Shown here: one piece after another, positions 3,301 through 64,000 of the stretch | Layout: every line of letters starts with the position of its first letter | Position numbering within the stretch: the first letter of the stretch is position 1 | Assembly: GCF_000372725.1 (NCBI RefSeq) | Contig: NW_005201287.1 | Coordinates: 1,085,081 to 1,149,080, forward strand | DNA length: 64,000 nt | Direction of reading: 5' to 3' | Origin: Emiliania huxleyi CCMP1516 | Taxonomy: Eukaryota | Notes under the pieces: generated by a model | What the model saw: the letters and a program-made list of their open reading frames with translations, nothing else | What the model was told of the DNA's origin: nothing | Database searches by the model: none | Program-made: the position numbers and the translations under genes

Positions 3301-4294
3301 CTAAAAGTACGTACACTGAAAAAGCGTGTCTCGAGTTTGTGGCAGCCCCACAGCCGGCGCGCGCCGCCAGGAAGCACCGCTCGCGTGTCGGCGGCACTCC
3401 CTGGCACCCAGTGAGTGCCGCGAACCGACCAGACCGAACAGGCTCGATGCCGCGCTCGCTGTGGGGCTGCCACAAAGTCGCCGCCGAGCGTGCCACCGAC
3501 GGCGTCCCGGCGGAGGTGATGGAGTGTGAGACCTGAGGCTGCGGAGGTGACGCCTGAGGTACCGGCCCGTGTACGGCGACTCAGCCGGCGACCGCCACGG
3601 GCTCAGACGAGACTTGTCGACGCGTTCCGGCTCAGCTTCACCGTGGTCATCGGGCGTCTGTCGACGTCAGGACCACCCATACAGCTCGCGGGTTTGAGGT
3701 CGCAAGAGCCAAGATGGTGGCGTTTGGACATCCCAACCATCACACAAGACAGCCTGTAGGTGATGGCGGGACGGCGCAGTGTTTGTGGCACTCGGCAGTA
3801 GGCACCCGCGGCACAGCCCCGCGGTCGGCTCTCGCGGGCTGCGGAACCGGCCCCAGAAGGGGACGGTCCGGGCGAGTGTGGCAGCTCCTGCGCTAGTATG
3901 GGCACCCTCTATCACAACACTACTGATCCTGGCCATTAGAGCTGCCAGGGATAGCGTCAGGAGCTGGTAGTAGTCAAAACCCCTCATATTTGAGACATCG
4001 TGGCCCATATACTCGCACAACGAGCCATCTCTGCGGCGCGCGGTGCGAGAGAGAGGCCGTGAACAAAGACGTGCGAGCAGGCGCTTCTCGAGACGAGCGC
4101 TTGCGAGCGCGAGCAGCAGCTGTGAAACACACATGACACAAAAACAAACATAATGAGAACGCGGTCAACTCGGAACTCGCAAGACGCAACTCCCCGCGGG
4201 GCCGCGCCCGGCCGGGGCCCGCGCCCCGGGCCCGGCCCGCGCGAGCGAGTCTACACACATCACACGGTGATAATTCGTAAAAAAAAGCATCGTA

Positions 4295-7579: not shown

Positions 7580-9893
7580 TCAGTCTAGCTGCTCCATCCC
7601 GCTGCCCGCCGCCGCCGGCTCCTCCCCTGCGCCGTTCCGCTCGTCCTGATCCTCGACCGGCGCGGGCGCGCCCTTCGCGCCGTCGGCGAGAGCGTCTGCC
7701 GCCGGCGCCTCGCTCCCTCCAAAGGCGGCGGTCGCGTACGGCGAAGCGTCCGGCTTGGCGGGAGGCAAGCCGCGTTCGCACCGCTCCTCCTCGGTGAGCC
7801 GCGCCTCCGCCAGCTTCGCCGCCGCCTCGGCCGCCGCCGCCGCAGCAGCTGCCGCCTCCTCGGCCTCCGCAGCCTCCCGCGCCTCCTCGGCCGCCTCGCG
7901 CTCCGCACGCTGCTTGACGAGGCCGCGCACGAGCGACGCCATGCTGCCCACGCCCTCGTCGCTGTACGCCTCGACGTCGTCGGGCGGCGGGAGGCCGAGC
8001 TCGCGGGAGAGGAGGAGAGCGCACCCCTCGAGCAACGTCACCAGCGAGTGCGACAGCCCGCCCTCCTCCTCGGCGGCGGCGCCAGCGTCCGCCTGCCGCG
8101 CGGCCGCCGCCTCGAAGTGCGGGAGACCGCCGCCTACGGGACGTGTCCAGGACACGTATGGACGTGTCATGCACGGCCTCGAGCTGCGCGAAGCCGCCGC
8201 CGTCGACGAGCTCGGCGGCGGAGGCCGCGTCGCCGATCAGGCCTGCGAGCGCGCGCGCGCCGTCCGCCTGCACCTCCTCCGAGCCGGCCTGCCGCACGCA
8301 CAGCCGCAGAACCTCGGCGGCGGGCGCCTGCAGCCGCAGCCGCGCCAGCAACGGCGCGTCTCCCCGCGCGAGCTGCGCCACCAAACCGACCGTCGGGCCG
8401 ACGAGCGCCGCCTCCTCGGCCGCCGACGCGCCGCCGTCGGCGTCTGCGTCGGCGCGAGCTCCGACCGTCTCGATGGCCACGAGGAGCTTGCGCAGCACCT
8501 CCGCCTCGAGGACGGACGCGCGGACCACGTCGTTGAGCGAGGCGAGCATCTGCAGCGCGCGCACGCCGACACCCGCCACCGCGCCGGTGGGGTGGGCCCG
8601 GACCGCGTCGCAGAGCGTCTCGACGCCGCCGTCGAGCACGAACGGCTTTGGAGGCACCGCGGGCAGCAGCATCCGAACCGCGAGGACGAGCTGCGCCGCC
8701 GTCGGAGCGTCGCGCATGTGCGAGCGCAGCGCGGGCAGGAGGAGGCCCATCGCGCCGCCGTCGGCAGCGATCTTCTTGACGAAGCCCCGCCCGCGCATGA
8801 GGGAGCAAAGCAGCCTCCACGCGTCTGCCGTCACCTCGCGCAGCTGGCCGTGCATCCGGACCGCGCGCAGCAGAAGCGGCACCGCGCGCGCGTTGAGGGC
8901 CGCAACCACCGCCCCGTCCGCAGCCTCCTTGGCGCTCACCGCGACGGCACTGCCCGCGTCTGCGCCTCCGTCGCCCCCGCCGCCGCCCGCCGCTCGCACC
9001 GCCGTCTGCGCCGCCGCCGCCTCGGCGGCGGCGGGCGAGGCGGGGTCGATGTTTGCCTCGATTGCGGCGATGCACTCGCGGAGGGCGGCCAGGTCTCGGG
9101 GCCGCTGCCCCATCCGCTGGACGACGACGTCCAGCCGCGCCGGCGGCGGCGGCGCGCCCTCCGCTGCGGCGTGGGGCACGCCGCCGGCGACGGGCGGCGG
9201 CGCGGGCTTGGAGGCGATGGCGGGGAGGGGCGCGAGGATGGCTGGCCAGAGCGAGGGCCTGACTTTTGGCAGGTCGATCACAATCTCGTGCGTGTCGGCC
9301 GAGAGGTGCCACATGCACTCGGACGCCTCCACCTCCGCGTGCAGCTCGCCCGCCACGAGCGGCTGCGGCCAGAAGCGAGCGCGCAGCACGAGCCGCGTCG
9401 CCGGCCCGTGGCTCGGCGCCAGCTGGAGCAGCACCTCGCTCTTGGTGGTCCCGTCAGGCACCGCGACGGCGATGGTCAGGTCCGTCTCCGACTGCGTCCA
9501 GCGGTACCCTCCCCCGTCGCCCGCCGTCGGGTCCGCACGCGGCTCCTCCTTCTTCCGCGGCCGCGGCGGCGGCGTGGGCTCGGGCGGCGGCCACTCGCCA
9601 AAACGGTCGGGCACGGCGGCGGCTCGCGCGGCGGAGGCGTGAGCCGCGAGTGCTGTGAGCATCTCCTTGCGCGCGCGTAGCGGCAGGCCGCCGAGCGCCG
9701 GTGCGATCTCCGCCAGCGCCTGCTTGAAGCCCAGCGGGTCGCGGGCGTCCTTTGGCACGTCAGCAAAGTCGAGGAGCCGGTTGAGCGTGGGCTCCGGCCA
9801 GCCGCGGGGCAGCTGCGAGCCGCTAGCCGCGCACAGGTCGCCGCGCAGCGCCTCGCCCGACCGGAGCGACTTGGCACGGAGCGTGCTGGCCAT
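7580..9893 (-). CDS. CS (p23/NudC-like) domain + armadillo-like repeat protein; intron 8134-8200
   Basis: YRWTQSETDLTIAVAVP..GELHAEVEASECMWHL..IDLPK..LWP; ARM-like helices; splicing joins the 780-aa and 196-aa ORFs in frame. Confidence 0.75.
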
Positions 9894-19402: not shown

Positions 19403-20155
19403 GGCACGTTGTGCGAGTATATGGGACACGATGTCTCAAATATGAGGGGTTTTGACTCCTACAAGCTCCTGACGCTATTCCTGGCAGCTCTAATGACCAG
19501 GATCAGTAGTGCTATGATAGAGGGTGCCCATACTAGCGCAGGAGCTGCCACACTCGCCCGGACCGTCCCCTTCTGGGGCCGCTTCCGCAGCCCGCGAGAG
19601 CCGATAGCGGGGCCGTGCCGCGGGTGCCTACTGCCGAGTGCCACAAACACTGCGCCGTCCCGCCATCACCTACAGGCTGTCTTGTGTGATGGTTGGGATG
19701 TCCAAACGCCACCATCTTGGCTCTTGCGACCTCACACCCGCGAGCTGTATGGGTGGTCCTGACGTCGACAGACGCCCGATGACCTTGGTGAAGCTGAGCC
19801 GTAACGCGTCGACAAGTCTCGTCTGAGCCCGTGGCGGTCGCCGGCTGAGTCACCGTGCACGGGCCGGTACCTCAGGCGTCACCTCCGTAGCCTCAGGTCT
19901 CACACTCCATCACCTCCGACGGGACGCCTTCGATGGCACGCTCGGCGGCGAGTTTGTTGCAGCCCCACAGCGAGCACGGCGTCGAGCCTACTCACTCCAG
20001 TTGGTTCGGCACACTCGGTGGGGTCCACCGAGTGTGCCGAACGCGCGAGCGGTGCGTCCTGGCAGCCCGCGCTGGCTGCGGAGCTGCAACAAACTCGAGA
20101 CACGCTTTTTGGGACATTTTCGACGCTTTTGTCCCATATACTCGCACAACATGCC
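19403..20155. mobile_element. 753-bp MITE, same family as 569-4026, inverted
   Basis: 25-bp TIR GGCA(C/T)GTTGTGCGAGTATATGGGAC; TSD ATCC at 19399-19402 and 20156-20159. Confidence 0.9.
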
Positions 20156-20336: not shown

Positions 20337-21586
20337 TTATTCCCCGTACTGTTCCGCAAAGATGCGCTCAAGCACCTCGCCGGACAAGGGGTCGTCGGGC
20401 CGACCGGGAGAGCCCTCGGCCTCCGCAACCTGCGAGCGCCCACCGCCCTCGCCGCCCCCGTCCTCTTCTTGCCGACTGCTTGCCTGCGGATCAAGCACGC
20501 CGGCGAGGTAGCGGGACAGCGGGCGCGCCCCTTCGGCTGTCACGCTGCGCAGCTCGCCCCGCCGGATCTTGTCGAGGAGCAGCCGCTGCGAGCGACGCGC
20601 ATTCGAGAGCCAGCTCGGCAGCTCGGGGGCCTGCTGGCCAGCGGCGGCTACAGCCGTGCTCCCCACGGGCTGCAGGTAAAACAGCTCGTCGAGCGACTGC
20701 GCCGCCGCGCGGTAGTCGCCGAGCGCGGCCGCGCACTCTGCCGCCGCGTCCCACGCGGCGGGGAGGGTGGGGCAGCGGCGGACGGCGGCGGCGGCGGCCT
20801 CGGCTGCCTCGTCGCCTCTCCCGAGCTTGGCCAGCACGCGAGCGTGCATCGCGCACACCCGCGCCTGCCACCTGCCCCGCGCAGACCCGCCCGCCGCCAG
20901 CCCGGCCGGCGCGACTCGCTCGCCCGTCCACTCGACCCACTCGCCCGCCCCCGCCCCCGCGACCAGTGCGGCGCCTTCGAAGCGGAGCCCGCGGTCGGCC
21001 AGGTGTAGCCGCACCTCGGCGCCGCCGCCCGCCTCCGCCTCGTGCCACACGCCCGCAAACGAGCCGCCCTCCGCCCTGCCCCGCATCGACCCGGCGCCGC
21101 GCCGGTACTCTCCCTCCAGCTCCGCCGCAGCGTCTCCGCCCCCGGCGGCACCGCCGCCCTCGGGCCCGCCTCCCGCCTCCGCCTCCGCCGGCGAGCGGAG
21201 CGCCAGCCGAGTCGCCTGCAGCGCCGCCTCCCCCTCCTCCGCCCCGCCGCCGCCGTAGCTCGCCGGCGCGGCAGGCGGAGCAGCGGCCTCCGCGCCGCCG
21301 GGAGGGGCGAGGCAGAGGCGCGACGAGTAGAAGCTCTCCACCCACTCGCCCGCAAAGCCGCGCCGCCGCGCCGCCGGCGGCGGAGGCCACCCTCCCCGCG
21401 GCGGCGGAAGGCTGCGCACATACTCGGCGGCGGCGGCGAGGGGCGGCAGCGCCTCGGAGCAGTCCGCGGCCGACCAGTCCCGCGTGTCGAGGTCCTCGAG
21501 CAGGTCGCCGCGCGCCGGCCCGTTGACGCGGTCCCCGAGGATGGCGCACGCGGCGGCGTAGTCTCGGTACGCCTGCTCAGGCGGCC

Positions 21587-21628
<42 letters not shown>

Positions 21629-21629
21629 A

Positions 21630-21718
<89 letters not shown>

Positions 21719-22202
21719 CGGCCTGCGGTTCGGGCGGTTCGGGCGGCCAGTGAGGGTGAGGGTCGGGCTAGGAGCACGCCTGCTCGAGGGTGGCGGGCGG
21801 CAGGCTCTCGGCGCCGCACTCCGCCTCGAGCCAGCCGATCACGTCGTCAATCGAGTTGAGCCGAAAGTAGGGCTTGCCGTCGCGGCCCTCGCCGCCCGGC
21901 ATGCGCGCCCCATCGCCGCCCATCACGAGCTTGGCGTTCACGCCGCGGCTGCAGCGGATGAAGCAGGGGCCGGGAGAGACGCCGAGCCCCGGCGGGCCGA
22001 GCACGCGCAGGCACTCGATGGCGCGGAAGGCAAAGCCAAAGCCGAAGAGGTTGGTCGGATTGCGCTTGCCGCAGATGTTGGAGTTTGTGCAGACCACGAG
22101 GCAGCTCGGCGGCACTGGCGCCTGGCGAGGGCACGCGGCGGCGAGGGCCGGGCCTCCGAGGAGGAGCGGGAGGAGGCGGGAGCCGCGTAGCGAGGCGTGC
22201 AT
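20337..22202 (-). CDS. Thioredoxin-like [2Fe-2S] ferredoxin domain + TPR protein; intron 21573-21779
   Basis: VVCTNSNICGK..GPCFIRCSRGVN; TPR-like AAWDAAAECAAALGDYRAA; splice EQ|AYRD keeps frame. Confidence 0.65.
21587..21712 (+). repeat. (TGAGGG)~21 telomere-variant array inside an intron
   Basis: Direct reading of the sequence. Confidence 0.95.
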
Positions 22203-26656: not shown

Positions 26657-26841
26657 CCCTGGGTCTGGACGATTTTTTCACGGTATCCGCGGCGAGATAT
26701 GGCGCGGGAAACACCGAGGGAGGATCGGGCAATTCGCTATTCGGGGAGAGGAACACGGGGAGATACGGGGTAATAGAGGGGAATACGCGGAGATAGAGGG
26801 AGATATGGGGAGATAGCGCAAAAAAATCGTCCAGACTAGGG
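26657..26841. mobile_element. Short MITE
   Basis: GTCTGGACGATTTTTT / AAAAAATCGTCCAGAC inverted ends, internal GAGATA repeats; no clear TSD. Confidence 0.7.
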
Positions 26842-26919: not shown

Positions 26920-28137
26920 CTGAGCCCTGGCCTCGACACCTCGACACCAAACCTCGACACCGACTCGACACCTCGACAACCCATGCCAACTCGACAAACT
27001 CGACACCCCTCGACACCATCTAGGCTGAAACCATGCTCGTCCGTGTCAAGGTGCCAAACTCGACACCTCGACACCCCTCGACACCCCTCGACACCGCTCG
27101 ACACCGCTCGACACCGCTCGACACCGCTCGACACCGCTCGACACCTCTGATGATCCTAACACAGCAGAGACGTAGACCCATTGGAGTCACAGAGTTAGAA
27201 ATCAGGGTTGCAGCAGCAATCAAACTTGGCTGGCAGTACTTTCATCCCTGAGTTGCAGCCTCTCAAGTTCTAGCTCAAGTTGCAGCTCAGTTGCACCCCT
27301 GTTGATGCAGCAAACATGGCAGTACTCAGGTAGCCCTAAGGTGCTGCACAGCACCTTGTACAGTGGCAATGAATCCTCACACCAGTGAGCTTGTGCCATG
27401 AGTGCAGACCTGTGGTCCATTGCGCTTTGTGCACTGGCGACGCTGCAACGGCGACGCTGCAGCGGCGGCGACGCTGCTGCGATGGGGTACTGTAGCCCTT
27501 AGCTGCTGGACAGCACCTTGTGCAGTGGCAATGTCCACTGACTCATGGCACCAGCCTTGTGCCATGAGCGCTGTGGTCAGTTGCGCTTTGTGCGCCGGTG
27601 ACGCTGCAGCAGCGACGCTGCTGCAGCAGCGACGCTGCTGCGGTGCTGCGCCTGCACAGCACCTTGGTGCACAGTGGCAATGACTCCCGGCACTTGATGT
27701 CCTCAAATGTCCACAGAGAGTATACTGGTTGTGCTCAGGTTGTGCTACATCAACAGGGTGCAACTGAGGCTGCAACTAAGCTCTAAGGGATGAAACAGCT
27801 TTGCAACTGCTGCCCAACTTTTGTTGTATGTTGATGGGCTGCAACTGCATCCACCTGCCACCTTGGACACCTCGATACCTCAGACGCCTCTTGACAACAC
27901 TCGACACCCGCTCGACACCCTCGACACCCTCGACACCCTCGACACCCTCGACACCCTCGACACCCCTCGACACCCCTCGACACTCCTCGACACGGACAAG
28001 CATGGTTTCAGCCTCGACAGGCCTCGACAGGCCTCGACAGGCCTCGACAGGCCTCGACAGGCCTCGACACCTCTATCCCTCGACAGCAGCTCGACACCCT
28101 CGACACCGGGCCTCGACACCTCGACACCAGGGCTCAG
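26920..28137. mobile_element. Non-autonomous TIR element with 8-bp TSD and CTCGACACC subterminal arrays
   Basis: TIR CTGAGCCCTGG/CCAGGGCTCAG; TSD GCGCAGAC at 26912-26919 and 28138-28145. Confidence 0.9.
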
Positions 28138-32819: not shown

Positions 32820-34987
32820 CCCCTCGGCGCGGCGCCTGCAGCGGCCTCTTTGCGCCACTCGACCCGCCTGTCTTGCGATTAGGCTCGCCGTCCAAGACGA
32901 TGCAGGTGGAGGTGCTGCTGCGCGCCTTCTCCGCCTCGCTGCAGCAGCAGATCCGCAACCGGCGCCACTTTTATAAGTCGTCGGTCCTCGTGCGCGAAGG
33001 GATCCTCGTGCTACACGGCGACGAGCTTGGCGGCGACCTCTCGCAGACGATGGCGGAGATCGACCGGCGGATGCTCGACTTTGTGGTCGGCCTTGACACC
33101 GAGTTCTCCGAGCTGATGGACGGCTCGCACCTCTACACGCCGACGGTCGACATCAACGAGGTCGTGCTGTCGGAGGCGAAGAAGACGCTGGTCGTGGACA
33201 CTGTCCGCCACTTCGACACCTTCACCTCGGCGGCCAAGGAGCTCGAGCTGCACAAGAAGCTCTCCTACGGGCACGGGATGGTGCTCCTCTTCTACGGCCC
33301 CTCCGGCACCGGCAAGACCATGCTCGCGAACGCGATCGCCGCCATGGTCGGCAAGAAGGTGCTGATGATCAACTTTCCGGCGCTCGGAGCCAACTCGGCG
33401 GGCGCAATCCTAAAGCTCGTCTTCCGCGAGGCCAAGATCCACGACGCGGTCCTCTTCTTCGACGAGTGCGAGTCGATCTTCATGGACCGCACGAAGGGCA
33501 ACCTGCAGGTCAACACCGTCCTCACCGAGCTCGAGCGGCACGAGGGACTCTGCGTCCTCGCCACCAACCGGCCGATGGACCTGGACGAGGCGATGCACCG
33601 GCGCATCACTCTCGCCATCGAGTTCACCAAGCCCGACCTGCTGCTGCGCGAGAAGATCTGGCGGAGCATGGCGCCGCCAAAGCTGCCGCTCGGCGACGAC
33701 ATCGACTTCATGGCGCTCGCGCGCAAGTTCGAGCTGCCGGGCGGCTTCATCAAGAACGCCTGGCTGACGGCGCTGTCGCTCGCCGTCGCGCGGGAGGGCG
33801 CCGCGTGCAAGGTCACGCAGGCGGATCTGCACGCCGGCGCGTCGCACCAGCTGCGCGGGCGGCTCGCGATGTCCAAGATGGACCGCGGCATCGTCCCGAC
33901 GCGCGGGCTCGAGGAGGCGAGGGACCCGCGCCCGCCCTCCCAGCTTCCTTCTCCCTCCCAGCATCCTTCTCCCTCCTCCCCCCCCCCCCCCCCCCACGGC
34001 CCCTCCCCGCCACTCCTCCGTCGCCCCTCCCGCCTCGCACCGCACCGCCCAGCCGAGCGAGCAGTCGGCGCGGGTAGGTGGAGCTGCCCGCCTCGGTCAA
34101 GGACAAGCTCCGCCAGATGGTCTCCTACTCCAAGGCGCAGGCGGTGCTGTTTGGCCAGTGGGGCTTCGACAAGCAGCACGGCCGCGCGCAGGGCATCGCC
34201 GCGCTCTTCCACGGCCCCCCCGGCACGGGCAAGACGATGGCGGCCGAGGTCTGCCCGGCTCGACTGTGGCGCCCTCCCAGCTCACCCATCTAAGGGCCGT
34301 CGCCCTCGCCCCCAGGCTGTCGGGTTTGACATCGGCCGCCCGCTCATGGTGGTCAACTGCGCTCAGCTGATGGACAAGTACGTGGGCGAGTCGGCCAAGA
34401 ACATCGAGAAGGTCTTCGACGAGGCCAAGGCGCAGGAGGCGGTGCTCGTGTTCGACGAGTGCGAGGGCCTGTTTGCCGAGCGGAGCTCCGAGGGAGGCTC
34501 GACCGCGCGGCACGACTCGATGAACATCGGCGTGCTGCTGCACCACATGGAGACCTTCTCGGGCGTCGTCGTCGCCATCACGAACCGGTTCCAGCAGATC
34601 GACTCCGCCTTCCACCGGCGCTTCAAGTTCATCCTCGAGTTCCCCACGCCCAACGCCGCGGCGCGCGGCCGGCTCTGGCGCCTCCTCGTGCCGAAGGAGG
34701 CGCCGCTGCACGCCGACGTCGACTTTGCGAGGTGGCGCCGTGCGCCGCAGCCGGGGGGGGGGGGGGGAGCTGGGAGTCACGCCCGGAAGCACCGCCGCAG
34801 GTTGGGCGAGTCGTACGAGCTGTCGGGCGGCTCGATCAAGTCGGCCGTCTTCCGCGCAGCGGTCGAGGCGTCGCTGATGCCCGAGCCGTCGGAGCGCATC
34901 ATCACCATGGCGGCGCTGCAGGCGGCTGCGCGCGAGGAGCTCGACAAGGACGGCGACTCGCGCCGACCCGCAGTCATGTACACGTGA
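31015..34987 (+). CDS. Tandem AAA+ ATPase (introns near 32820-32882, 33917-34077, 34249-34315, 34732-34800)
   Basis: GPSGTGKT/LFFDECE/ATNR and GPPGTGKT/LVFDECE/ITNR. Confidence 0.9.
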
Positions 34988-35640
34988 CCTGAATCGCGTC
35001 GGAACGGCACGGGGCCGCAACCCGAGCGAGGGACTCGGGCCAGTGCACGCATGCTGGCCGCTTTGCAACGATTAGTACTGAGGAGCGAGGGCATGTGGGC
35101 CCACGGGTCGCGCGCAGCACGATGTGAGACCTGACGCCACTCACCACGAACACCCGTGGCACACACCGCACCGCCGCGCGGGGAGATGTGAGTCCTACCC
35201 GCACGCGCGTTTTGAGTCTCGCGGGTCCGCGTCCGGGGGGAGGAGAGACACTGACAGGCGCCGGGGAGTCGAGAGAGAGACCACAGCTGGGAGAGAGGAG
35301 ACTACTCTACGCGGCGCGCTACGGAGAGAGAGGTGTATCGAGCACAGAGGATGATGTATTTGTCAAGATCAGAGACAGACCATCGGACACCCATGCGGAC
35401 ACCACGGGCGCGCGCAGCAGTACCGGCCGGCGCGACCATACTTACATGTACGTCTCTCAGTGTTGAGAGAGTGCAAAAACCGCTCAGTCCAGCATGGACA
35501 GGAGGTCCGGCCCCGGCCTCCAGCCACGAGGAGCGGGGGCCGGGGCGGGGGCGGGGGCGGGGGCAGCTGGCGACGGCGGCGCTGGCAGCGGCGGCTCGAC
35601 CTCCATGTCCTCTTCTTCGGTGTCGGAGCCCGGAGGCAAG

Positions 35641-38273
35641 TCAACCATCTACAGGAAACGGGAGCGGTGAAGGCGTGCCTGGGCGGCGGTGGGAGTCCCA
35701 CTCGCTGGGCCGCGCCCGCGGTGCGTTCGGCGGGGCGGTCTCTCTTTGCGGCGGCGGTCTCCGCGCCAGCTGATCTGCCAGATAGCCAAACAGGTCGGCG
35801 CACGCGCCAGGCATGGTGGGGGGCCGGCGCTTCGCGTGCGGCGGCCCGAAGCTGGCGAGCAGCTTAGCGACCTGCCCGACGCGGGTGTCGGCAGGCAGCA
35901 CCTACAGCCGGAGGGCGAAGGAGCTGAGCGCAGTATTCCCCGCACCCTCGTCACACTCCCCCCTCGCCCTGCTCTGCACCTCCTTCAGCGCGGTGAGGGC
36001 GCGCGCCAAGCTCGCGTCGCCGAACGTCAGGTAGCGCAGGGACGGCCGGCGAGCGCGCGACGCGGCAAGCCACTGCACGACCGCCTTGAGCTGGACGCAG
36101 CCGCCAAAGGCGCCGCACCCCCAGTTGCCCGTGCAGAGGGGGCGGAGGGGCGCGTCGGGCGTCTCGCCGTCGGGAGGCGCAAACCCGACGAACGCCTGCG
36201 CGCAACACGCACTTTGGTGAGGGAGGCCCCTCTCTCCCTCGCCGCCTGCACGGCCCGCCGGCGCCTTGTTGAGCTCCCTCTCGATCGCGCCGCGGGAATA
36301 CTGCCCCAGCCGCGTCTGCGCGTCGCGCCCAAAGGCAATCGCGTCGATGGCGAGCAGCTCCGTCTCCGCGGGAGGCTCCGCGGGCGAGCCGGCGGCCGCC
36401 ACGTGCGGTCCCGCAAAGGCGAAGGTGGCGTGGCCGTAGCCCGAGTAGTTGGAGAAGCGCTCGAAGCCGCGCATCAGCAGCGCCTAGGGAGTGTCCAGGA
36501 AGCGTCTTGGGAATGTGCAGGAGGCGTCTGGCAAGGCGCATCAGCAGCGCCTCGTGAGAGGCCATCGGCTCGGCGATCGCGCGGCTCACAATCAGCTCGG
36601 GGCAGATCAAGAAGCGGATCTCCTCCTGCACCGCGCCGTTGCGAAACACTCCGCCGCCGATCGTCGCGTTCGCAAAGTCGAGCTGCGTGAAGTGCGGCCC
36701 CGAGTCCTCGATCGTCCCTCCCTCCACCGCCTCCACCGGGCAGAGCGGCGCGTCGCTCATGCCCCACGCCTCCTCCCCGTGCCCGCCCAACGACAGCTCG
36801 GACGTGTCGCCGACGAGCCGGCGGAAGGTGATGGGGCGGAGGCGCCACCCGCCGGCGGCGTCGCGGCGGCGGCGCGCCACAACGCCAAAGTATTCGAGCA
36901 AGCAGCGCCACTTCGCCTCGTGCTGCGACGGCAGGGACGGCGGCGCCCCGTGCCTGCCCGGGTTAGGCATCTCGCCGATCAGCCAGCAGAAGGAAAAGTA
37001 GGGGAGGACGGACGAGCCGCGGCCGCCTGCAAACAGGTTGGGAAGACGTTCAGGGACGGCTCTGGTGGGCGAGGAGCAACGGGCCCGTCGCCGCCTCGGC
37101 CGCGCGGGGTGTCGTTCCGGTTGGGCATCGTGCAGAAGAAGGCGTTGGCGAGCAGGCAGGCGCACTGCTCGGCGCTCAGCTCGACGCTGCCTGGCCCGCC
37201 GGAGCGGAGCAGCCGCAGCGGCGCGCGGAAGTGGCGCGGCGTCTCGAGCACGAGCTCGCAGAGCGTGGGCACGATCTCGCCGAGCAGCTCGGCGCGACCC
37301 GCGTCGTCGAGCACCGACCCGAGCAGCGCCTGCAGCCGGCCCAGCCCCCACTCGCCGCCCACCGCCCTCCGCAGCGTGGCCATCGTCTCGAGCAGCGCGT
37401 CGACGTCCGCTGGCGGCCGAGAGAGCGCGCGAACCACCACCGGCCAGAGCGGAGCGCCTATTCGCGGACGTCTGTGAGCAGAAGCGGCGCTAGTGTTCAC
37501 CGAGGCGCCTCTGGAGCGGTGGTGCCGTCTGCGCAGCGTGCGCGCGGCGAGCAAGGGAGGCGGACATGCGACCGGTCCCACCGGTCGTCGTAGTCGGCGG
37601 GGAGGCTCGAGGGGGTTGGCACGGTCGACGCAAAGTCCGCCTCGAACTCCACCTGCGCCGCCGCGTCGTCGTCAAGCCGCGGCTCCTCCTCCTCCGTCTC
37701 CTCGCCGGACGCGTCTGCGAGAGACCCCTCTGCCGTGCCTGCGCCCGGGACAACCGCCAAGGCGCACTGCTGCGTCACCCACGCGGCGTCCACGACCGGT
37801 ACGCCCTCCTCGCGCATCCTTGTAGTCATCGGGCCCTCCTCGTCCGGCTGCGTGGAGGGTCCGAGCAGCAGGTGTGTGGGCGGGTCTGCACCTGGGTGTC
37901 CAGCCGCAGAAGTCTCCAGCCGGCCGCCGGCAGACAATATCTCGTTGCGCAGATCGGCGAGCTCGTCCTCGGCGCCCTTCCAGCCGGCAAACGCAATCAC
38001 GCTGCCGCGCAGCGGGGCCTCGGGCGTCACGAGGAGCGCCGCCGGAGCAGCCACGGACGGTACATTGATGTTGGCCTGCGGCGCCGCGGCCGTTGCTGGG
38101 GCCTGCACGGGATCGAGTGAGCGTTCGGACGAACCGCCGGGCGCCGCGGCCTTCGCGGGGAGCAGCCAGCTGTCGAGCGTCTTGGGCATGTCAGTGTTGG
38201 TGAACCTTCTTTCGCGCCAGTCCGCGCCCTTGTCGTGCCAGTGTGCTGTGAGAGAGGCTTGTTTTTCTTGCAT
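35641..38273 (-). CDS. PARG: Poly(ADP-ribose) glycohydrolase with N-terminal BRCT domain (about 5 introns)
   Basis: LLANAFFCT, DFANATIGGGV..GAVQEEIRFLICPEL, TGNWGCGAFGG; BRCT-like LRGSVIAFAG..GG..THLL..PVVDAAWV. Confidence 0.9.
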
Positions 38274-40097: not shown

Positions 40098-40905
40098 TTC
40101 TTTTCTGGGATAGAGAGCAGCCTCGCTCTCAATCCTAGAAGTCGAAGGATTGTGAGCAGCACTCCTCGCAATCGTAGCATCTCTGTGCGATTGTGAGCAC
40201 CCACGCTCGCAATCCTACGTCTTCTAGGACTAAGAGCAGCTCCACTCCCAAGGTGACTGGTGACGCCTACGACTACTACCAGTGCGCTCGCAATCCTAGC
40301 AAAGTCTAGGATTGCGAGCAGCACTGCTCACAAATCCTAGCAACATGCCTCCGATTGCGAGCAGGAGCGCTCGCAATCCTACATCTTGTAGGACTATGAG
40401 CGGCTGCGCTCACAATCGTACCAAAGATCCAAGGACTGCTAGCAGCGCACAGAGGGCGCTCCCAATCGCTCCAGCCGCGAGCGCTTGTGAGTGAGCGCGC
40501 CGGGAGGGTCTCCTCGCAATCCAAACAGCGATCGCACCGATTGCGAGGGGACCCGCTCGCAATCCTAGACGTCGTAGGACTGTGGGCGGTGTCGCTCGCA
40601 ATCGGCGAAAGTTCTAGGATTGCGAGCGCTCCTGCTCGCAATCGGAGGCATGTTGCTAGGATTGTGAGCTAAGCTGCTCGCAACCCTAGAGTTTGCTCGG
40701 AAAGTGAGCGCGCTGGTAGTAGTCGTAAGCGTCAGCAGTCACCTTGTGAGCGGAGCTGCTCTTAGTCCTAGAAGACGTAGGATTGCGAGCGTGGGTGCTC
40801 ACAATCTCACAGAGATGCTACGATTGCGAGGAGTGCTGCTCACAATCCTTCGACTTCTAGGATTGAGAGCGAGGCTGCTCTCAATCCTAGCCTGGTAGAA
40901 AAGAA
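40098..40905. mobile_element. Foldback-type palindromic element built from CTCGCAATCCTAG subrepeats
   Basis: ~40105-40380 is the reverse complement of ~40615-40890. Confidence 0.85.
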
Positions 40906-53791: not shown

Positions 53792-55505
53792 ATGGCAGCC
53801 ACAGCTCCTGTACGCCTGCTCGTGCTCCTCTGCTGCTGCGCCGCCGTGCATGCCTTCGCTCCGGCGCTCGCTCCAGGCTCGCCTTTGCGCCGCCTCGCGC
53901 CGTGCCGCGAGCAGTGCTGCTTCTGCCCGCCGGCCGAACGGCCGGCGCGGTGCGAGCTGCGGCTGAGCGACGCTGGCGCTACACCGCCGAGCCCGGCAGT
54001 CGCAGGGCTCGGCGGCCGCACGCTGCTCAAAGCGAGGCTGATGCTTCTGGCGACGGCAATGCTGTGGGGCACATACCCCGTGAGCATGAAGCTGATCTAC
54101 GCGGCCCCCGGCGCGACTCTCACGCCGATCGGGACCACCGCCATCCGCTTCGCCGTCATGGCGCTCGCCGCCCAGGTCGTCCTGCTGGTGCAAGCGCGTG
54201 CGCCCGCGGGTGGTGGCGTGGGCGGCGGCGAGGGCGGCGGCGGCGGCGACACCTTCTGGCGGAGCGCATTCGAGCTCGGCGCGTGGGGTTGCGCCGGGAC
54301 GCAGCTCAACTCGATGGGTCTGCAGCAGCTCTCCGCCGTCCGAGTGACGCTCATCCTCGCGACGGTCAACATCTTGACGCCCGCACTCGCCGCCATCTTC
54401 GGCACCTCCGACAGCCAGCGATCCATCCCGCGGCGAACGTGGCTGGCCTGCGCCCTCTGCCTCGTCTCGACCGTGCTCGCGGCGCGCCTCCCGCCCCTCA
54501 CCGCACGGGCTGCCCCGCCCCGAGGCCTCAGCTCGCCGCCGGGCTGCCCCGCACCGAGGCCTCAGCTCGCCGCCGGGCTGCCCCGCACCGAGGCCTCAGC
54601 TCGCCGCCGCCTCCTCACCGCAGGTGCAGGTGAGCCCCGCCTCGCCGCTCGTCGCCGCGGCCGCCTCGCGCCTCTCGCCGCCGGACGGGTGCGTCCTGGC
54701 CGCCTCGCTCTGCTACGCCATGTGCAAGGTCCGCCGCCTCCTCCCCTGCCCCTCCCCCCTCCGCGGTCTCTCTCCCCCCCTCCCCCTTCCCCCTCCTCAC
54801 CTCCCTCCCGCGCCTCCCTCCTTCCCTCCGCTAGCCCCACGCCCCTCCCGTGCCCGAGCCGCCCCTCCTCCCCCGCGGCCCGCAGGTGCGTCTCGGCTCC
54901 TTCGTGGAGCGGCACCCCCCCGCCAGGCTCGCGGCGGGCCGGCTGCAGACGCAGGCCCTCCTCTCCTTCGCACTGCTCGGCCTGCTGGGCACGCTCGGGG
55001 GTGCCGCCACCCTCTGGCCAGCTGCCTCTAGCGGGACGCGGCGAGATCAGCCGAGATGACGCGAGCTGGCCCCGGGCGAGTAGGTATCCACAGCTTCGGC
55101 GTGGGGGCGCTGCTCCGCTGGGCGTCGCGAGTGACTCTGCGGCAGGCGGCCCTCCTCGTCGGCTCGGCGCTGCTGCCCGGCGTCATCGCCACGCTGCTCC
55201 AGGCTGCGGGGCAGCGCGTCGTGCCTGCCGCGAGCGCGCAGCCGATCTTCGCTCTGATGCCCGTCTTCGCGGCGCTCTGGGCATTCTTCGTGCTACACGA
55301 GCCAATCAGCCCGAACGAGGCGATGGGCGGGCTCGGCACCGTCGCCGCCGCCGTGATCGCCTCGTCCGCGACGCCGGGTTCTCCGTCCAGCGCCGCACTC
55401 CGGGCGTCCGTGTCGGCGGACGGGCATTCTTCGGCCGCAGGCTCCACGGCCGAGACGGCGCCTGTGCCCACGAGAAGCGCGAGCCAAAGAGGGACGGAGA
55501 TGTGA
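53792..55505 (+). CDS. EamA/DMT transporter, probably plastid-targeted (3 introns)
   Basis: Signal ..AVHAFAP, LWGTYPV, AIRF, QAAGQRVVPAASAQPIFALMPVFAALWAF..HE. Confidence 0.85.
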
Positions 55506-59057: not shown

Positions 59058-60836
59058 TTATTTGGTGTGCACAGTGAGAAAGATAGCTAGAAGAAACCCC
59101 CCGCGCGACGGAAGCGGCCTGACTAGCCGCCGTACATGAGGGAACAGGGAGGAGGGAGGAGGGGAACGCGTGCACGGCGGACGGGCACGCGAACGGCCCC
59201 CTCCCCGCGGTGTCAAAGGGCTGTAGAGTGTCTGTTGGTTCCGAGCGAGAGACGGCTGCCGGTGCTGCGCGAGTGCGGGGCGCTGCGATCGGGCTCTAGC
59301 GGCGGAGCTCACTGCTGCTGCTCCCCCTGCTGAATGCGCTGCAGCGCCGCGATGAGTTCCGCCATCTCGCCCTGGCCCGCCGGCGCGAGGGGACGGGGAG
59401 GCGGCGGCCCGCATAGCGTCCCCTGCGCGTGCTTGCGCTGCAGCGAGGGGAGCGCCTCGGCCACCGCCGACCAGCCGCTGGCGGCGAGGGCGCTCGCCAC
59501 TCGCTTGTCGGCGGCGGCGGCGGCCTCGATCACGACGGCAGCCTCGATCCAAAAGGGGCGCAGCGGCGGCGGAGAGGCGCGCGGCGGCGGCGCGGCGGCG
59601 CCGTCATCGCCGCCGCCGCCGCCGCCGCCTCTGGCGAGCTCTGGAGCGAGGGCGGCGACGACAGAGTGGTGGAAGGCCCAGCTGCCGGAGAGGGTCGCTT
59701 CGCGGAGGGCGCGCGAGCCTCCGAGGAGGGAGGCGCGCACGAGGGCGAGCGCCGCCACCTGCGAGGGGCGCGAGGAGGAGCCTCTCGCCGCTTCCCTCGC
59801 CAGCCTCCGGTGTGGGGGGGAGGGAGCGGCGGGGCGTTGGGCGCGGGGCGGAGGGCGAGTGACCTGCAGCAGCGAAGCGGCCGGGTAGTGCTCCAGGAGC
59901 GTCGCGGCGCGGCTCGCCGGCGGCGGCTGGCAAGCAGCGAGCGCGGAGGAGAGCACGGGCCGCTTGGCCGAGACGAGGGTCACCTACGGCCGCGAGAGAC
60001 CCCACCGTGCCTCTACACCATGCCATTGCCTCCTCTCCAGCCTCGCCGTCGGAGGAGGCGCGCCGCACCAGGAGCTGCAGCAGCCGCAGCCGCGCCAGGC
60101 CGAGCGTCGGCCGCACGGCGCCCGAGCCGCCGCTGGCCGCGGGCAGGTCGAGCAGCGAGCACAGAGCGGCCGCGTTGGTGGAGCACCACTTTAGGGCCTT
60201 GGGCAGCAGCTTTGGGTTTGTGCCGGGGACGAGAGCGTCGACCTCGGCTTGCGCCGCGCGCAGTAGCGCGTCGGCGGCATCGGCGGCGGCGACGCCGTGG
60301 GCCGTCTCCGCACTTGCAGTCAGGAGCGTGGCGGTCGCCTTGTCAAAGCTCAGCCCCTCTGGGCCAGTCTCGTGCCTCGCGCTGAAGATCTCGCCGATGT
60401 CTGGCGCCGCCGCCGCAGCAGCAGCAGCAGCTTTTTTGCGCGCAGCCGCCGCCTTCTGCTTCTCGCGCTTGAGCTGGCTCGCACTCTTGCCAGCGCCAGC
60501 AGCCTCGGTGCCAGCAGCCTCGCCGCCGTCAGTGTTCGCAACAGCCTCAATACCGCCGCCGTCGCCGTCGCCGGCACCGCCGTCGCCGTCGCCGGTACCG
60601 CCGTCGCCGCCCTTCTTCTTCTTCTTCTTGCGAGGCTTTTTGTCCGCCTGGCTGGGTAGCATAAAGGCAGAGGCCTCCTCCATGGATGGCAGGAAAAAGA
60701 ATTTTGATCTACTATGGAGAGCAAGCGATCGGCAGGCGGCGGCGGCGTCGCAGGACGAGGCAGAGGAGAGCGACGCGACAGGGGAAGAAGCGACAGGAGA
60801 GAGAACGACGAGAGTGGGACGACCGCGGGGTGGCAT
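59058..60836 (-). CDS. Hypothetical multi-exon protein
   Basis: Protein-like exons in alternating frames separated by GT/GC-AG intron-like tracts; ends uncertain. Confidence 0.45.
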
Positions 60837-62449: not shown

Positions 62450-63078
62450 GCTTTGAGTGTTGTTGAAGGATGGTAGTAACGCTTTGAGTGTTGTTGAAGG
62501 ATGGTAGTATGGCAGTGCGGTCGGAGGGCGGCCGGGTCGCGCCGGAGCGGCCAGCGCGGGGAGGTGGGGGTGGTGCAAAGTAACGCGAAGGACGAAAGTC
62601 GCGCAAAAACTCTTTAATTTAATTCACCCGATAGATCTACCATCATCTGGCCCGCTGTGGGTGCGCTTCTTAGCTCCCCGCCCTGGATGTGAGGTTACCG
62701 ACTGCACTCCAAGTGCTCCAAGTGCTTCCACGTTCATGAACCACTTCCTACTTGTGCAGGCCCGGTTTCCCGGGAGCTAGCCCATATCTCAACGCGGCGC
62801 ATCTGTTTTAAATTCGTTCTTTCTTACTGGCGCGCACTGGCTCCCCGCACAACAGACCTGTAACACAGGGTCTAGAACATCCTGCTCAAAGACGAGATCG
62901 GCAAGCCGCTTCCACACACGCGAGTGAGGGCACGTGCTGTATCCAGTTCCACATTCGATCTCTTCAACGGGGTGGGGGTGGGGGTGGGGTGGGGTGTGTG
63001 CGCGCGCGATGGGGGAGGCAACGGGCACAGGGGTGCTCGAGTGCTGGGCCGCCGTACTGGCCGCCTAAGCCCGGCCGG

Positions 63079-63347
63079 CTCTCGACCTTTGATTCGCTAC
63101 CTGTAAGGGCTCGCGACCATAGCCTGCACGAGCCAGCCCTCCCCAGCGCTGCCTTTGCTTTCGGTCGAGTGCCACTGGAGGATAGCTCTCGACCTTTGAT
63201 TGGTTACCTGTATGAGCTCGCGACCATAGCCTGCACGAGCCAGCCCTCCCAAGCGCCGCCTTTGCTTCTGGGGCTGAGACGCTTGTGTCGGTCGAGTGCC
63301 ACTGGAGGATAGCTCTCGACCTTTGAGTGGCTTCCTGTATGAGCTCG
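63079..63347. repeat. ~2.3 tandem copies of a ~107-127 bp unit
   Basis: CTCTCGACCTTTGA..CCTGTA..GCTCG recurs at ~63079, ~63186 and ~63313. Confidence 0.85.
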
Positions 63348-64000
63348 TACCCGCTGGTGCCAACGGATCCGCCATCCACGGCTCGGCTTCTGCACCTCGC
63401 GTGCATCGTGAGCTTTGCCGCGGGGGGGAGGTTGCCCGACGTGATGCATGAAGCAATCATGGGCGAGAGCGGCATATTGACCTCGTTCCTGCAGCCCTTT
63501 GAGTAGAACATGTGCGGCGAGCAGTCGCCGTTGCACGGCAACGACGGCCGCGACTCGAAAGCCCGCTTGAATTTGGCATCGCGCCTCATGTAGTTGATCA
63601 AAACGCCGTCCAGCCATCGGTAGTTGCCCACGCCCCCAACGTTGCCACTCGGCACCGTGCGGTTACTCGACGATAATACAAGAAGAATACGCAGCTTGGA
63701 AGTTGCAGACGCCTATAAAGAAAAAACAGCCAGCTAAATTTCGGCGGCTAAAAAGCAAAGGACGGGCGCTTTTGATCGGCAAAGCAAAGTTGGAGTAACG
63801 GCGACCGCGTCGCCACAATGCCAGTCGCCTGTCGAGCAGCCTTGGCGGCGCGCATGCGCCGCAGGGTTGACCGACAGCCGCGCGCCTCGAGCCTCTCGCT
63901 CCACTCGCGGCACGACGCGCCCCGCGCGCCGGTCAGCGCAGCAGGAGTATTGCGACATGCTGCACAACGCCAGGGACAGCACTGAGAAGCTGGCGCCAGT

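Follow-up and report, generated by a model that had tools for sequence, protein, structure and literature searches.

Two 67-nt GC-AG introns of Emiliania huxleyi that open with a copy of the next exon's start and carry a tandem-repeat filler

The 64,000-nucleotide (nt) stretch of the Emiliania huxleyi CCMP1516 genome analysed here (contig NW_005201287.1, positions 1,085,081 to 1,149,080 of the forward strand; hereafter the window, whose own numbering is used throughout) harbors two minus-strand genes, one coding for PARG and the other for a CS-domain protein, that each contain a short intron of the same build. The PARG gene (35484..38189) comprises seven exons coding for 762 amino acids, as delimited by RNA joints, cuts, the reading frame and the Pfam family PF05028. 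Its introns, placed by RNA joints and cuts, lie at 37458-37525, 37027-37094, 36484-36550, 36196-36264, 35902-35979 and 35649-35715. The RNA evidence consists of 15 of 74 joints, of which nine in long records were kept and six with at most 22 letters on one side were dropped; eight of the nine occur in both RNA runs and the joint at 37458-37525 in RNA contig X11 only. Seven of the 17 listed sequencing runs were used, X8 and X10 coming from one sample. In a phylogenetic tree based on 22 of 26 rows (four were left out for want of anchor motifs), the PARG of the window falls in a 16-row clade (support 99/97) with P0003, whose cluster includes a Chrysotila/Pleurochrysis record. The second gene (7580..9893; 2 exons, 748 amino acids) is identified by Pfam PF04969, RNA pieces and its frame.

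Some further features of the PARG locus are worth recording. A single X11 contig (32882-38197) spans both the PARG gene and a convergent AAA-ATPase gene on the plus strand, which suggests overlapping 3' ends, a point that the contig alone cannot prove. A conspecific metagenome contig, L001 (3,361 matches versus 22 mismatches outside introns), lacks, at its position 2031, 12 nt of the PARG linker that the window has (36376-36387), the frame being preserved, and shows two amino-acid-changing substitutions shortly upstream of the intron discussed below.

The PARG intron at 36484..36550 (minus strand; 67 nt, GC-AG, phase 0) separates the E and A codons of the peptide HE|ALLMRGF. The minus-strand sequence AGGCGCTGCTGATGCGC is found at 36552-36536 and again at 36485-36469, a perfect match at a spacing of 67 nt. 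The donor-side copy (36536..36552) consists of the exonic AG and the first 15 intron bases, and the acceptor-side copy (36469..36485) of the intronic AG and the first 15 bases of the next exon, so that the intron opens with a copy of the next exon's start, as the initial annotation of this locus had proposed. Valid splice ends are present at just one of the 18 equivalent cuts, AG|GC...TAG|GC, which corresponds to intron 36484-36550. RNA contigs X11 and X13, which come from two studies, omit exactly these 67 nt (the 17 letters fit on either side), and the intron is kept in DNA contigs X3 (36254-38197, 3 gap letters) and X8 (35574-38195, 12 gap letters). It is also carried by L001, with both 17-bp copies intact (the donor-side copy being identical) and two substitutions in the filler. 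Removal of the intron yields the 762-amino-acid frame and joins positions 3-72 of the Pfam domain PARG_cat_C to positions 76-206, and its retention leads to a stop at residue 681. For the 12 bases of the repeat that extend past the consensus-like AGGCG, the chance probability is about 1.4e-7 per site. The 17-bp direct repeat and the splicing of a genuine GC-AG intron, both put forward in the initial annotation, are thus confirmed, and an assembly artefact is excluded by X3, X8 and L001.

The sequence enclosed by the two copies (the filler, 36486..36535, minus strand) was overlooked in that annotation. It is 50 nt long and, according to Tandem Repeats Finder (TRF), periodicity analysis and a table of its units, consists of a 6-nt spacer and four decayed 11-bp units of GACAC type, AGACGCCTCCT, GCACATTCCCA, AGACGCTTCCT and GGACACTCCCT, terminating in CCCTAG. 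TRF reports a period of 22, at which 18 of 22 bases match (shuffle p 3e-4); over the 11 positions a single mismatch separates units 1 and 3, and three mismatches separate units 2 and 4. An origin as a decayed copy of the downstream exon appeared plausible by eye and was rejected, similarity to the flanking exons not being significant (local p 0.77 downstream and 0.86 upstream; best anchored p 0.08). Since it matches neither flanking exon, the filler came from elsewhere. One match with a score of 40 near 59930 lies in an open frame and was reached by 1 of 100 shuffles; it is probably due to chance.

The CS-domain gene presents a single visible intron (8134..8200, minus strand; 67 nt, GC-AG), supported by RNA and DNA records and by the frame. 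It was first predicted from the sequence, and a 67-base RNA jump was found there afterwards: records X12#9 and X13#16, from two studies, pass from 8126 to 8194 with zero letters between, corresponding to a 67-base skip, and DNA records X9#23 and X10#1 retain the intron. This splicing evidence comes from a record-level table, the 15 of 98 joints available from the separate joint table all being short-sided rows. The first 25 bases of the intron and the preceding G (8176..8201, minus strand) form a decayed copy of the next exon's start (8109..8134, minus strand, coding for the peptide GGGLP), with 21 of 26 positions identical and the first eight exact. The filler (8135..8175, minus strand) is 41 nt long, is made of GACACGTCC and ACGTGTCC units, ends in CCCGTA and folds into a hairpin. 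The exon before this intron terminates in CG, so that the acceptor takes its A from the filler and the duplicate can account for the donor only. In the initial annotation the repeat supplies the splice sites; it need not give both. The exonic copy GGGLP is nearer to homolog P0051 (AGGLP) than is the intronic copy GGGFA (one homolog, compared by eye), as expected if the intronic copy decays. The two duplicates differ in this respect, 0 of 17 positions being changed in PARG and 5 of 26 in the CS intron.

Among the RNA-confirmed introns of the window, these two differ from what mismatched pairings produce. The intron start is identical to the next exon at 14 and 17 of 22 positions in the two introns, against at most 13 of 22 in 90 mismatched pairings, and the exact junction overlap reaches 17 and 8 nt, against at most 7. 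When the duplication alone was scanned for, both introns came out at the top of 95 candidate donor-acceptor pairs lying 64-72 nt apart (17 and 14 of 22). Scanning for the repeat alone, with a matrix built from these two loci, likewise placed them first, at 34.3 and 32.1, the next independent locus reaching 18.5. Among 45 intron pairs, none is more similar over the last 45 nt than this one (32.5 versus a mean of 16.6, standard deviation 4.4; shuffle p 7e-4), and the filler motif is absent from the other eight confirmed introns.

Other properties are more widely shared. Eight of the ten confirmed introns measure 67-69 nt, a tight size range seen from 33917 to 37525, and seven have GC donors, which is unremarkable given that GC donors account for 56-65% in E. 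huxleyi (PMC4028052). The next exon begins with GC or GT in nine of the ten, versus 17% of exonic positions after G (p ~1e-6); this fits donors derived from duplicated targets and equally an ordinary proto-splice-site preference. The GC content of the window is about 56-75% per 2-kb bin. AG|GY repeats are not enriched at intron-like distances, an overlap of at least 6 being found in 4.11 pairs per distance at 64-72 nt, versus 3.75 at 40-59 and 4.25 at 60-63, with tandem arrays left unmasked.

The intron position in PARG is not conserved in distant lineages, in agreement with the expectation set out in the initial annotation. The haptophyte-type locus L002 (genomic, as indicated by its own GC-AG intron), together with L003 and L004 of the same lineage, reads AAC GAG|GCR CTC uninterrupted at the PARG site, and proteins P0006, P0038, P0013 and P0011, encoded on contigs of 18-127 kb, read through it. 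Similarly, P0052 (345-kb contig) reads through the CS intron site. The spliced PARG product aligns to its homologs with no indel at the junction. As many as 79 of 80 loci align unbroken across the PARG site, many of which may be transcripts or distant paralogs, and the count of intron absence was accordingly limited to L002-L004 and the proteins on long contigs. The closely related P0001 (97% in the catalytic part) is known solely as a spliced-type protein. L002 shows two introns where the PARG gene of the window has none, one of them GC-AG at about 620-735. The absence of introns at both sites in distant orthologs makes gain in this lineage the simpler reading for the PARG and CS introns.

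The window contains additional repeats and elements. A 1,218-bp element (26920-28137) with 11-bp inverted ends (CTGAGCCCTGG) and a target duplication of 8 bp (GCGCAGAC) has the appearance of a non-autonomous DNA transposon. It reads CTCAG|GC at its right end and harbors 31 GACAC cores on one strand, versus 1.6 per kb elsewhere. It is rich in CCTCGACAC units, one base off the CCTGGACAC core of the two introns, and its comparison with the PARG and CS fillers gave no alignment above background; it is a lead only to the source of the filler. Close to it, a 174-bp inverted-repeat element (26663-26836; 25-nt arms, 88%) surrounds a 10-bp GGGAGATA-type array. A candidate 207-nt intron at 21573-21779 (minus strand), suggested by an in-frame stop, has a 10-nt junction repeat, GAGCAG|GCGT. 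Within it lies a (CCCTCA)n tract (21586-21722) that is bordered in turn by CAG|GCCGCCT, a repeat of 10 nt; deleting these 137 nt leaves 70 nt, close to the usual intron size, and the tract may be a second repeat family inserted with duplication. An EamA-like gene (54484-54886, plus strand) carries, in what is probably an intron, a 34-bp array (3.3 copies, 96%), as well as a possible 6-nt micro-exon (CAG|GTGCAG|GT) near 54624, recognized by eye. The birth of an intron by tandem duplication was envisaged for this array (54497-54609; 2 x 34 = 68) and rejected, as by sequence the array sits within a longer intron. Finally, the same 244-nt stretch, judged from its matching ends, is present in opposite orientations about 16 kb apart (3516-3759, plus strand, and 19670-19913, minus strand), and complex blocks of tandem and dispersed repeats occupy 1480-2530 (periods 53-146), 40100-40900 (GATTGCGAGC family) and 63065-63400 (periods 107-127).

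We consider it rather probable that the PARG and CS introns were each born in one step, by insertion of a repeat tract at a staggered cut with duplication of about 17-26 bases. A GACAC-type tandem repeat with units of 10-11 bp would enter an exon at such a cut as a pre-existing tract of 40-50 bases, and gap filling would duplicate about 17-26 target bases. The left duplicate would give the G|GC donor, and the acceptor would arise either from the ...CCC(G)TA end of the filler together with a target G or from the duplicated AG. Splicing would take out the filler and one duplicate, restoring the original mRNA exactly. Selection would keep the inserts that splice cleanly and reach the usual intron size, and the intronic duplicate would decay afterwards. 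As to the enzyme involved, repair of a staggered break capturing an abundant repeat seems somewhat preferable to target-primed reverse transcription of the repeat tail of a retroelement. Retroelements without long terminal repeats, when inserted in 5'-truncated form, leave target duplications of variable length, and under this alternative the filler would be the 3' tail of such an element. The duplication lengths at hand are two, 17 and about 26 bp, and no longer element with the filler as its 3' tail was found in the window.

Several observations weigh against this one-step insertion. The main one is that a perfect PARG duplicate stands beside a decayed filler, so that one has to assume a template that had decayed beforehand or else two time layers. 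The other eight of the ten RNA-confirmed introns are at background, with junction overlaps of 1-7 nt (permutation p 0.07 for overlap and 0.37 for identity). The agreement of the pair is partly post hoc: the CS locus was first spotted by eye before the scans, and the two motif matches, against 0.01 expected, were obtained with motifs built from both loci. The repeat body that they share is alike only over short units, and both loci come from one window. Searches for further members of the family in public collections gave 6 and 51 matches in viral contigs and one in prokaryote genomes, none of them haptophyte-like or of the same build as judged by eye, a result uninformative on the host genome. 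No empty allele is present in the conspecific DNA examined (X3, X8 and L001 for PARG, X9 and X10 for CS), in contigs that drop rare variants. Finally, a distance of about 0.9 changes per site to the nearest non-sister homologs leaves the gain undated.

These results sharpen the initial annotation. The repeat was held there to exemplify a pattern recurring across the window; it applies to two of the ten RNA-confirmed introns, the remaining eight showing no more than shuffled pairings and AG|GY repeats no enrichment, and the pattern marks one repeat-filled subset and not the whole window. The recurrent intron-generating mechanism suggested there receives an argument from the second intron of the same build, and none from a window-wide pattern. 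Orthologs with a single repeat copy and no intron were anticipated; the distant ones do read AG|GC, and no such allele was found within the species. The interpretation of the PARG intron as an insertion with a target duplication is thus partly supported, in a form restricted to the repeat-filled subset.

Two other explanations, both of which we regard as unlikely, account for part of the same evidence. According to the first, the introns are older and their 5' end was overwritten by the start of the next exon, through a local template switch or partial recombination with complementary DNA (cDNA), possibly provoked by the hairpin-prone repeat. This would explain why the PARG duplicate is perfect while its filler has decayed, and it agrees with the hairpin in the CS filler, with the fixation of the intron in all conspecific DNA seen and with the frequency of tandem repeats in other introns here, such as the 34-bp array of the EamA gene. 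However, both duplicates start no more than 1-2 bases from the splice junction and both introns measure 67 nt, the orthologs of other lineages lack an intron at either site, and the two visible introns of L002 occupy positions that are intronless in the gene of the window.

The second, which we find equally hard to credit, assumes stepwise local growth, in which a short piece of exon with G|GC was first duplicated in tandem and slippage between the copies then expanded an 11/22-bp unit up to a spliceable length, the likeness of the two fillers resulting from convergence on a favoured repeat or acceptor context. Tandem duplication is an accepted route (PMC3443670), the PARG intron divides into 23+22+22, its period keeping phase with AG|GCGC, and in L001 unit 2 opens with GGCGCC. 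Against this, the PARG filler and the 17-bp repeat are not significantly alike (p 0.56), and an unspliceable intermediate would be expected to break the PARG catalytic domain. Moreover, the motif is missing from the other eight introns, so it is no general acceptor signal.

It is still less probable that the two introns are decayed classical introners, that is non-autonomous DNA transposons that have terminal inverted repeats and duplicate a short target of fixed length, perhaps members of a 67-nt E. huxleyi family matching RepBase Novosib-1_EmiHux. The listed E. huxleyi families do include one of 67 nt with three GC and three GT donors (PMC12130899, Dataset sd07), and the window contains the 1,218-bp element with its 11-bp inverted ends, 8-bp duplication and 31 GACAC cores. 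However, the duplications of 17 and about 26 bp are unequal and above the 3-9 bp cited for such elements (PMC9860276), neither intron has inverted ends (5 of 10 and 6 of 10 complementary bases at best), and the 1.2-kb element is outside the top ten tiles for either filler. Chance agreement over the AG|GCG consensus, or an assembly artefact, is very hard to maintain: AG|G[CT] junctions alone give an overlap of 3-7 nt, and up to 11 nt the distribution of overlaps among 50,938 candidate pairs is like that of three Markov simulations, but no simulated pair exceeded 14 nt, the probability is that given above for PARG, a second intron has the same build, and the artefact is refuted by the independent DNA assemblies that retain the intron, L001 having both copies.

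If one-step insertion is correct, its reach could be larger than this window. We put forward, as a tentative possibility that we would not expect to hold as readily as the origin of the two introns, that Emiliania-type haptophytes operate a genome-wide intron factory, writing tracts of 10-11-bp (and telomere-like) repeats into exons with long, variable duplications, the donor coming from the duplicate and the acceptor from the TAG junction of the repeat. Since 80% of the exonic G|GY sites in the window are G|GC, such a factory would also explain the majority of GC donors and the GY starts of nine of the ten next exons. The sequence source of new spliceosomal introns is mostly unexplained outside introner bursts, and two introns in 64 kb with a common filler family and a long copy of the landing site, one fresh and one decayed, provide a signature that can be counted genome-wide in the genomes and RNA data already available, and the decay of the duplicate would allow each gain to be timed. 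Repeat-rich introns are reportedly described in the 2013 E. huxleyi genome paper. If the class is common, the GC-donor majority and these reportedly repeat-rich introns would be tied to one mechanism, and screens for introners, which require end-to-end similar copies and short fixed duplications, would miss such introns and undercount these gains. If it is rare, the PARG and CS introns are still an unusually clean pair of insertion scars.

In the literature searched, which left most subscription papers, including the 2013 genome paper, outside its scope, no description of haptophyte introns that combine a repeat filler with a long target duplication was found. Direct repeats of 4-30 bp near intron borders were surveyed across intron classes by Rogers and Bendich (2025, PMC11782384); the 17-bp border repeat falls in this range and is likewise read as an insertion scar, and the survey, by its abstract, includes neither a repeat-family filler nor an age test. 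Short repeats alone prove little, since 26% of conserved Drosophila introns also bear repeats of at least 5 bp (PMC3296678). In the model by which an intron arises when an exon segment with AGGT is duplicated in tandem in the genome (PMC3443670), a duplicated AG|GY is flanked by both splice sites and the coding sequence is unchanged, as here, but the whole intron is an exon copy, whereas in the present introns only the first 15-25 bases are. Mammalian interstitial telomeric repeats are also tandem tracts placed at double-strand breaks, in some cases accompanied by a duplicated target (6 of 130 rodent and 4 of 25 primate loci; PMC2246262). They are hexamers and are not reported there as making introns; the candidate (CCCTCA)n tract at 21586-21722 resembles them more than the GACAC introns do.

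Introners are similar in the outcome of the insertion. Those of Symbiodinium and Polarella contain the 3' splice site and take the 5' site from the target duplication (10.1101/2020.10.14.339549; PMC9860276), so that, as in the present introns, the donor comes from the duplicated target and the acceptor lies at the insert end, the mRNA is unchanged and GC donors are tolerated. However, they have fixed duplications of 3-8 bp, often inverted ends and copies similar from end to end, whereas here the duplication is long and unequal, inverted ends are lacking and the body is a decayed minisatellite; more generally, the PARG and CS introns lack both the fixed short duplication (about 2-9 bp in families that have one) and the terminal inverted repeats (a feature of many families, not all) that characterize introners. 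In E. huxleyi CCMP1516 itself, the described families include fam11 (6 copies, 67 nt, 3 GT and 3 GC donors, match to RepBase Novosib-1_EmiHux, no duplication being called), fam24 (5 copies of 70 nt, listed with '10bp terminal direct repeats' and a duplication of 2 bp) and fam4 (45 copies, with a duplication of 4 bp) (PMC12130899), and related rows appear in the supplement of PMC9860276. Length and GC donors are shared with fam11, which is however called 'carry 5', co-opt 3'', the reverse of the present case, and for which no long duplication is reported in that listing. The motifs of the two fillers were not found in 14 introner supplement files, whose family rows carry no sequence, so that this comparison is by description only.

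The closest parallel in the arrangement of repeats is offered by the neointrons of Daphnia pulex, attributed to the repair of staggered double-strand breaks, in which exon-intron repeats of 4-12 bp are accompanied by repeats inside the intron (Li et al. 2014, PMC4202315). In both cases the terminal bases of the adjacent exon are repeated at the opposite intron end, internal repeats are present and splicing removes the insert exactly; the significant internal repeats typical of the Daphnia introns are found in the PARG intron (18/22 at period 22, p 3e-4). The Daphnia introns differ in their shorter repeats, in an AT-rich filler mostly without known source and in their segregating empty alleles, whereas here the repeats measure 17 and about 26 bp, no empty allele is seen, and a single GC-rich repeat family of 10-11 bp is common to two unlinked introns. 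The PARG and CS introns thus resemble known neointrons and introners, and what is new with respect to both is the combination of longer, variable duplications with a minisatellite body.

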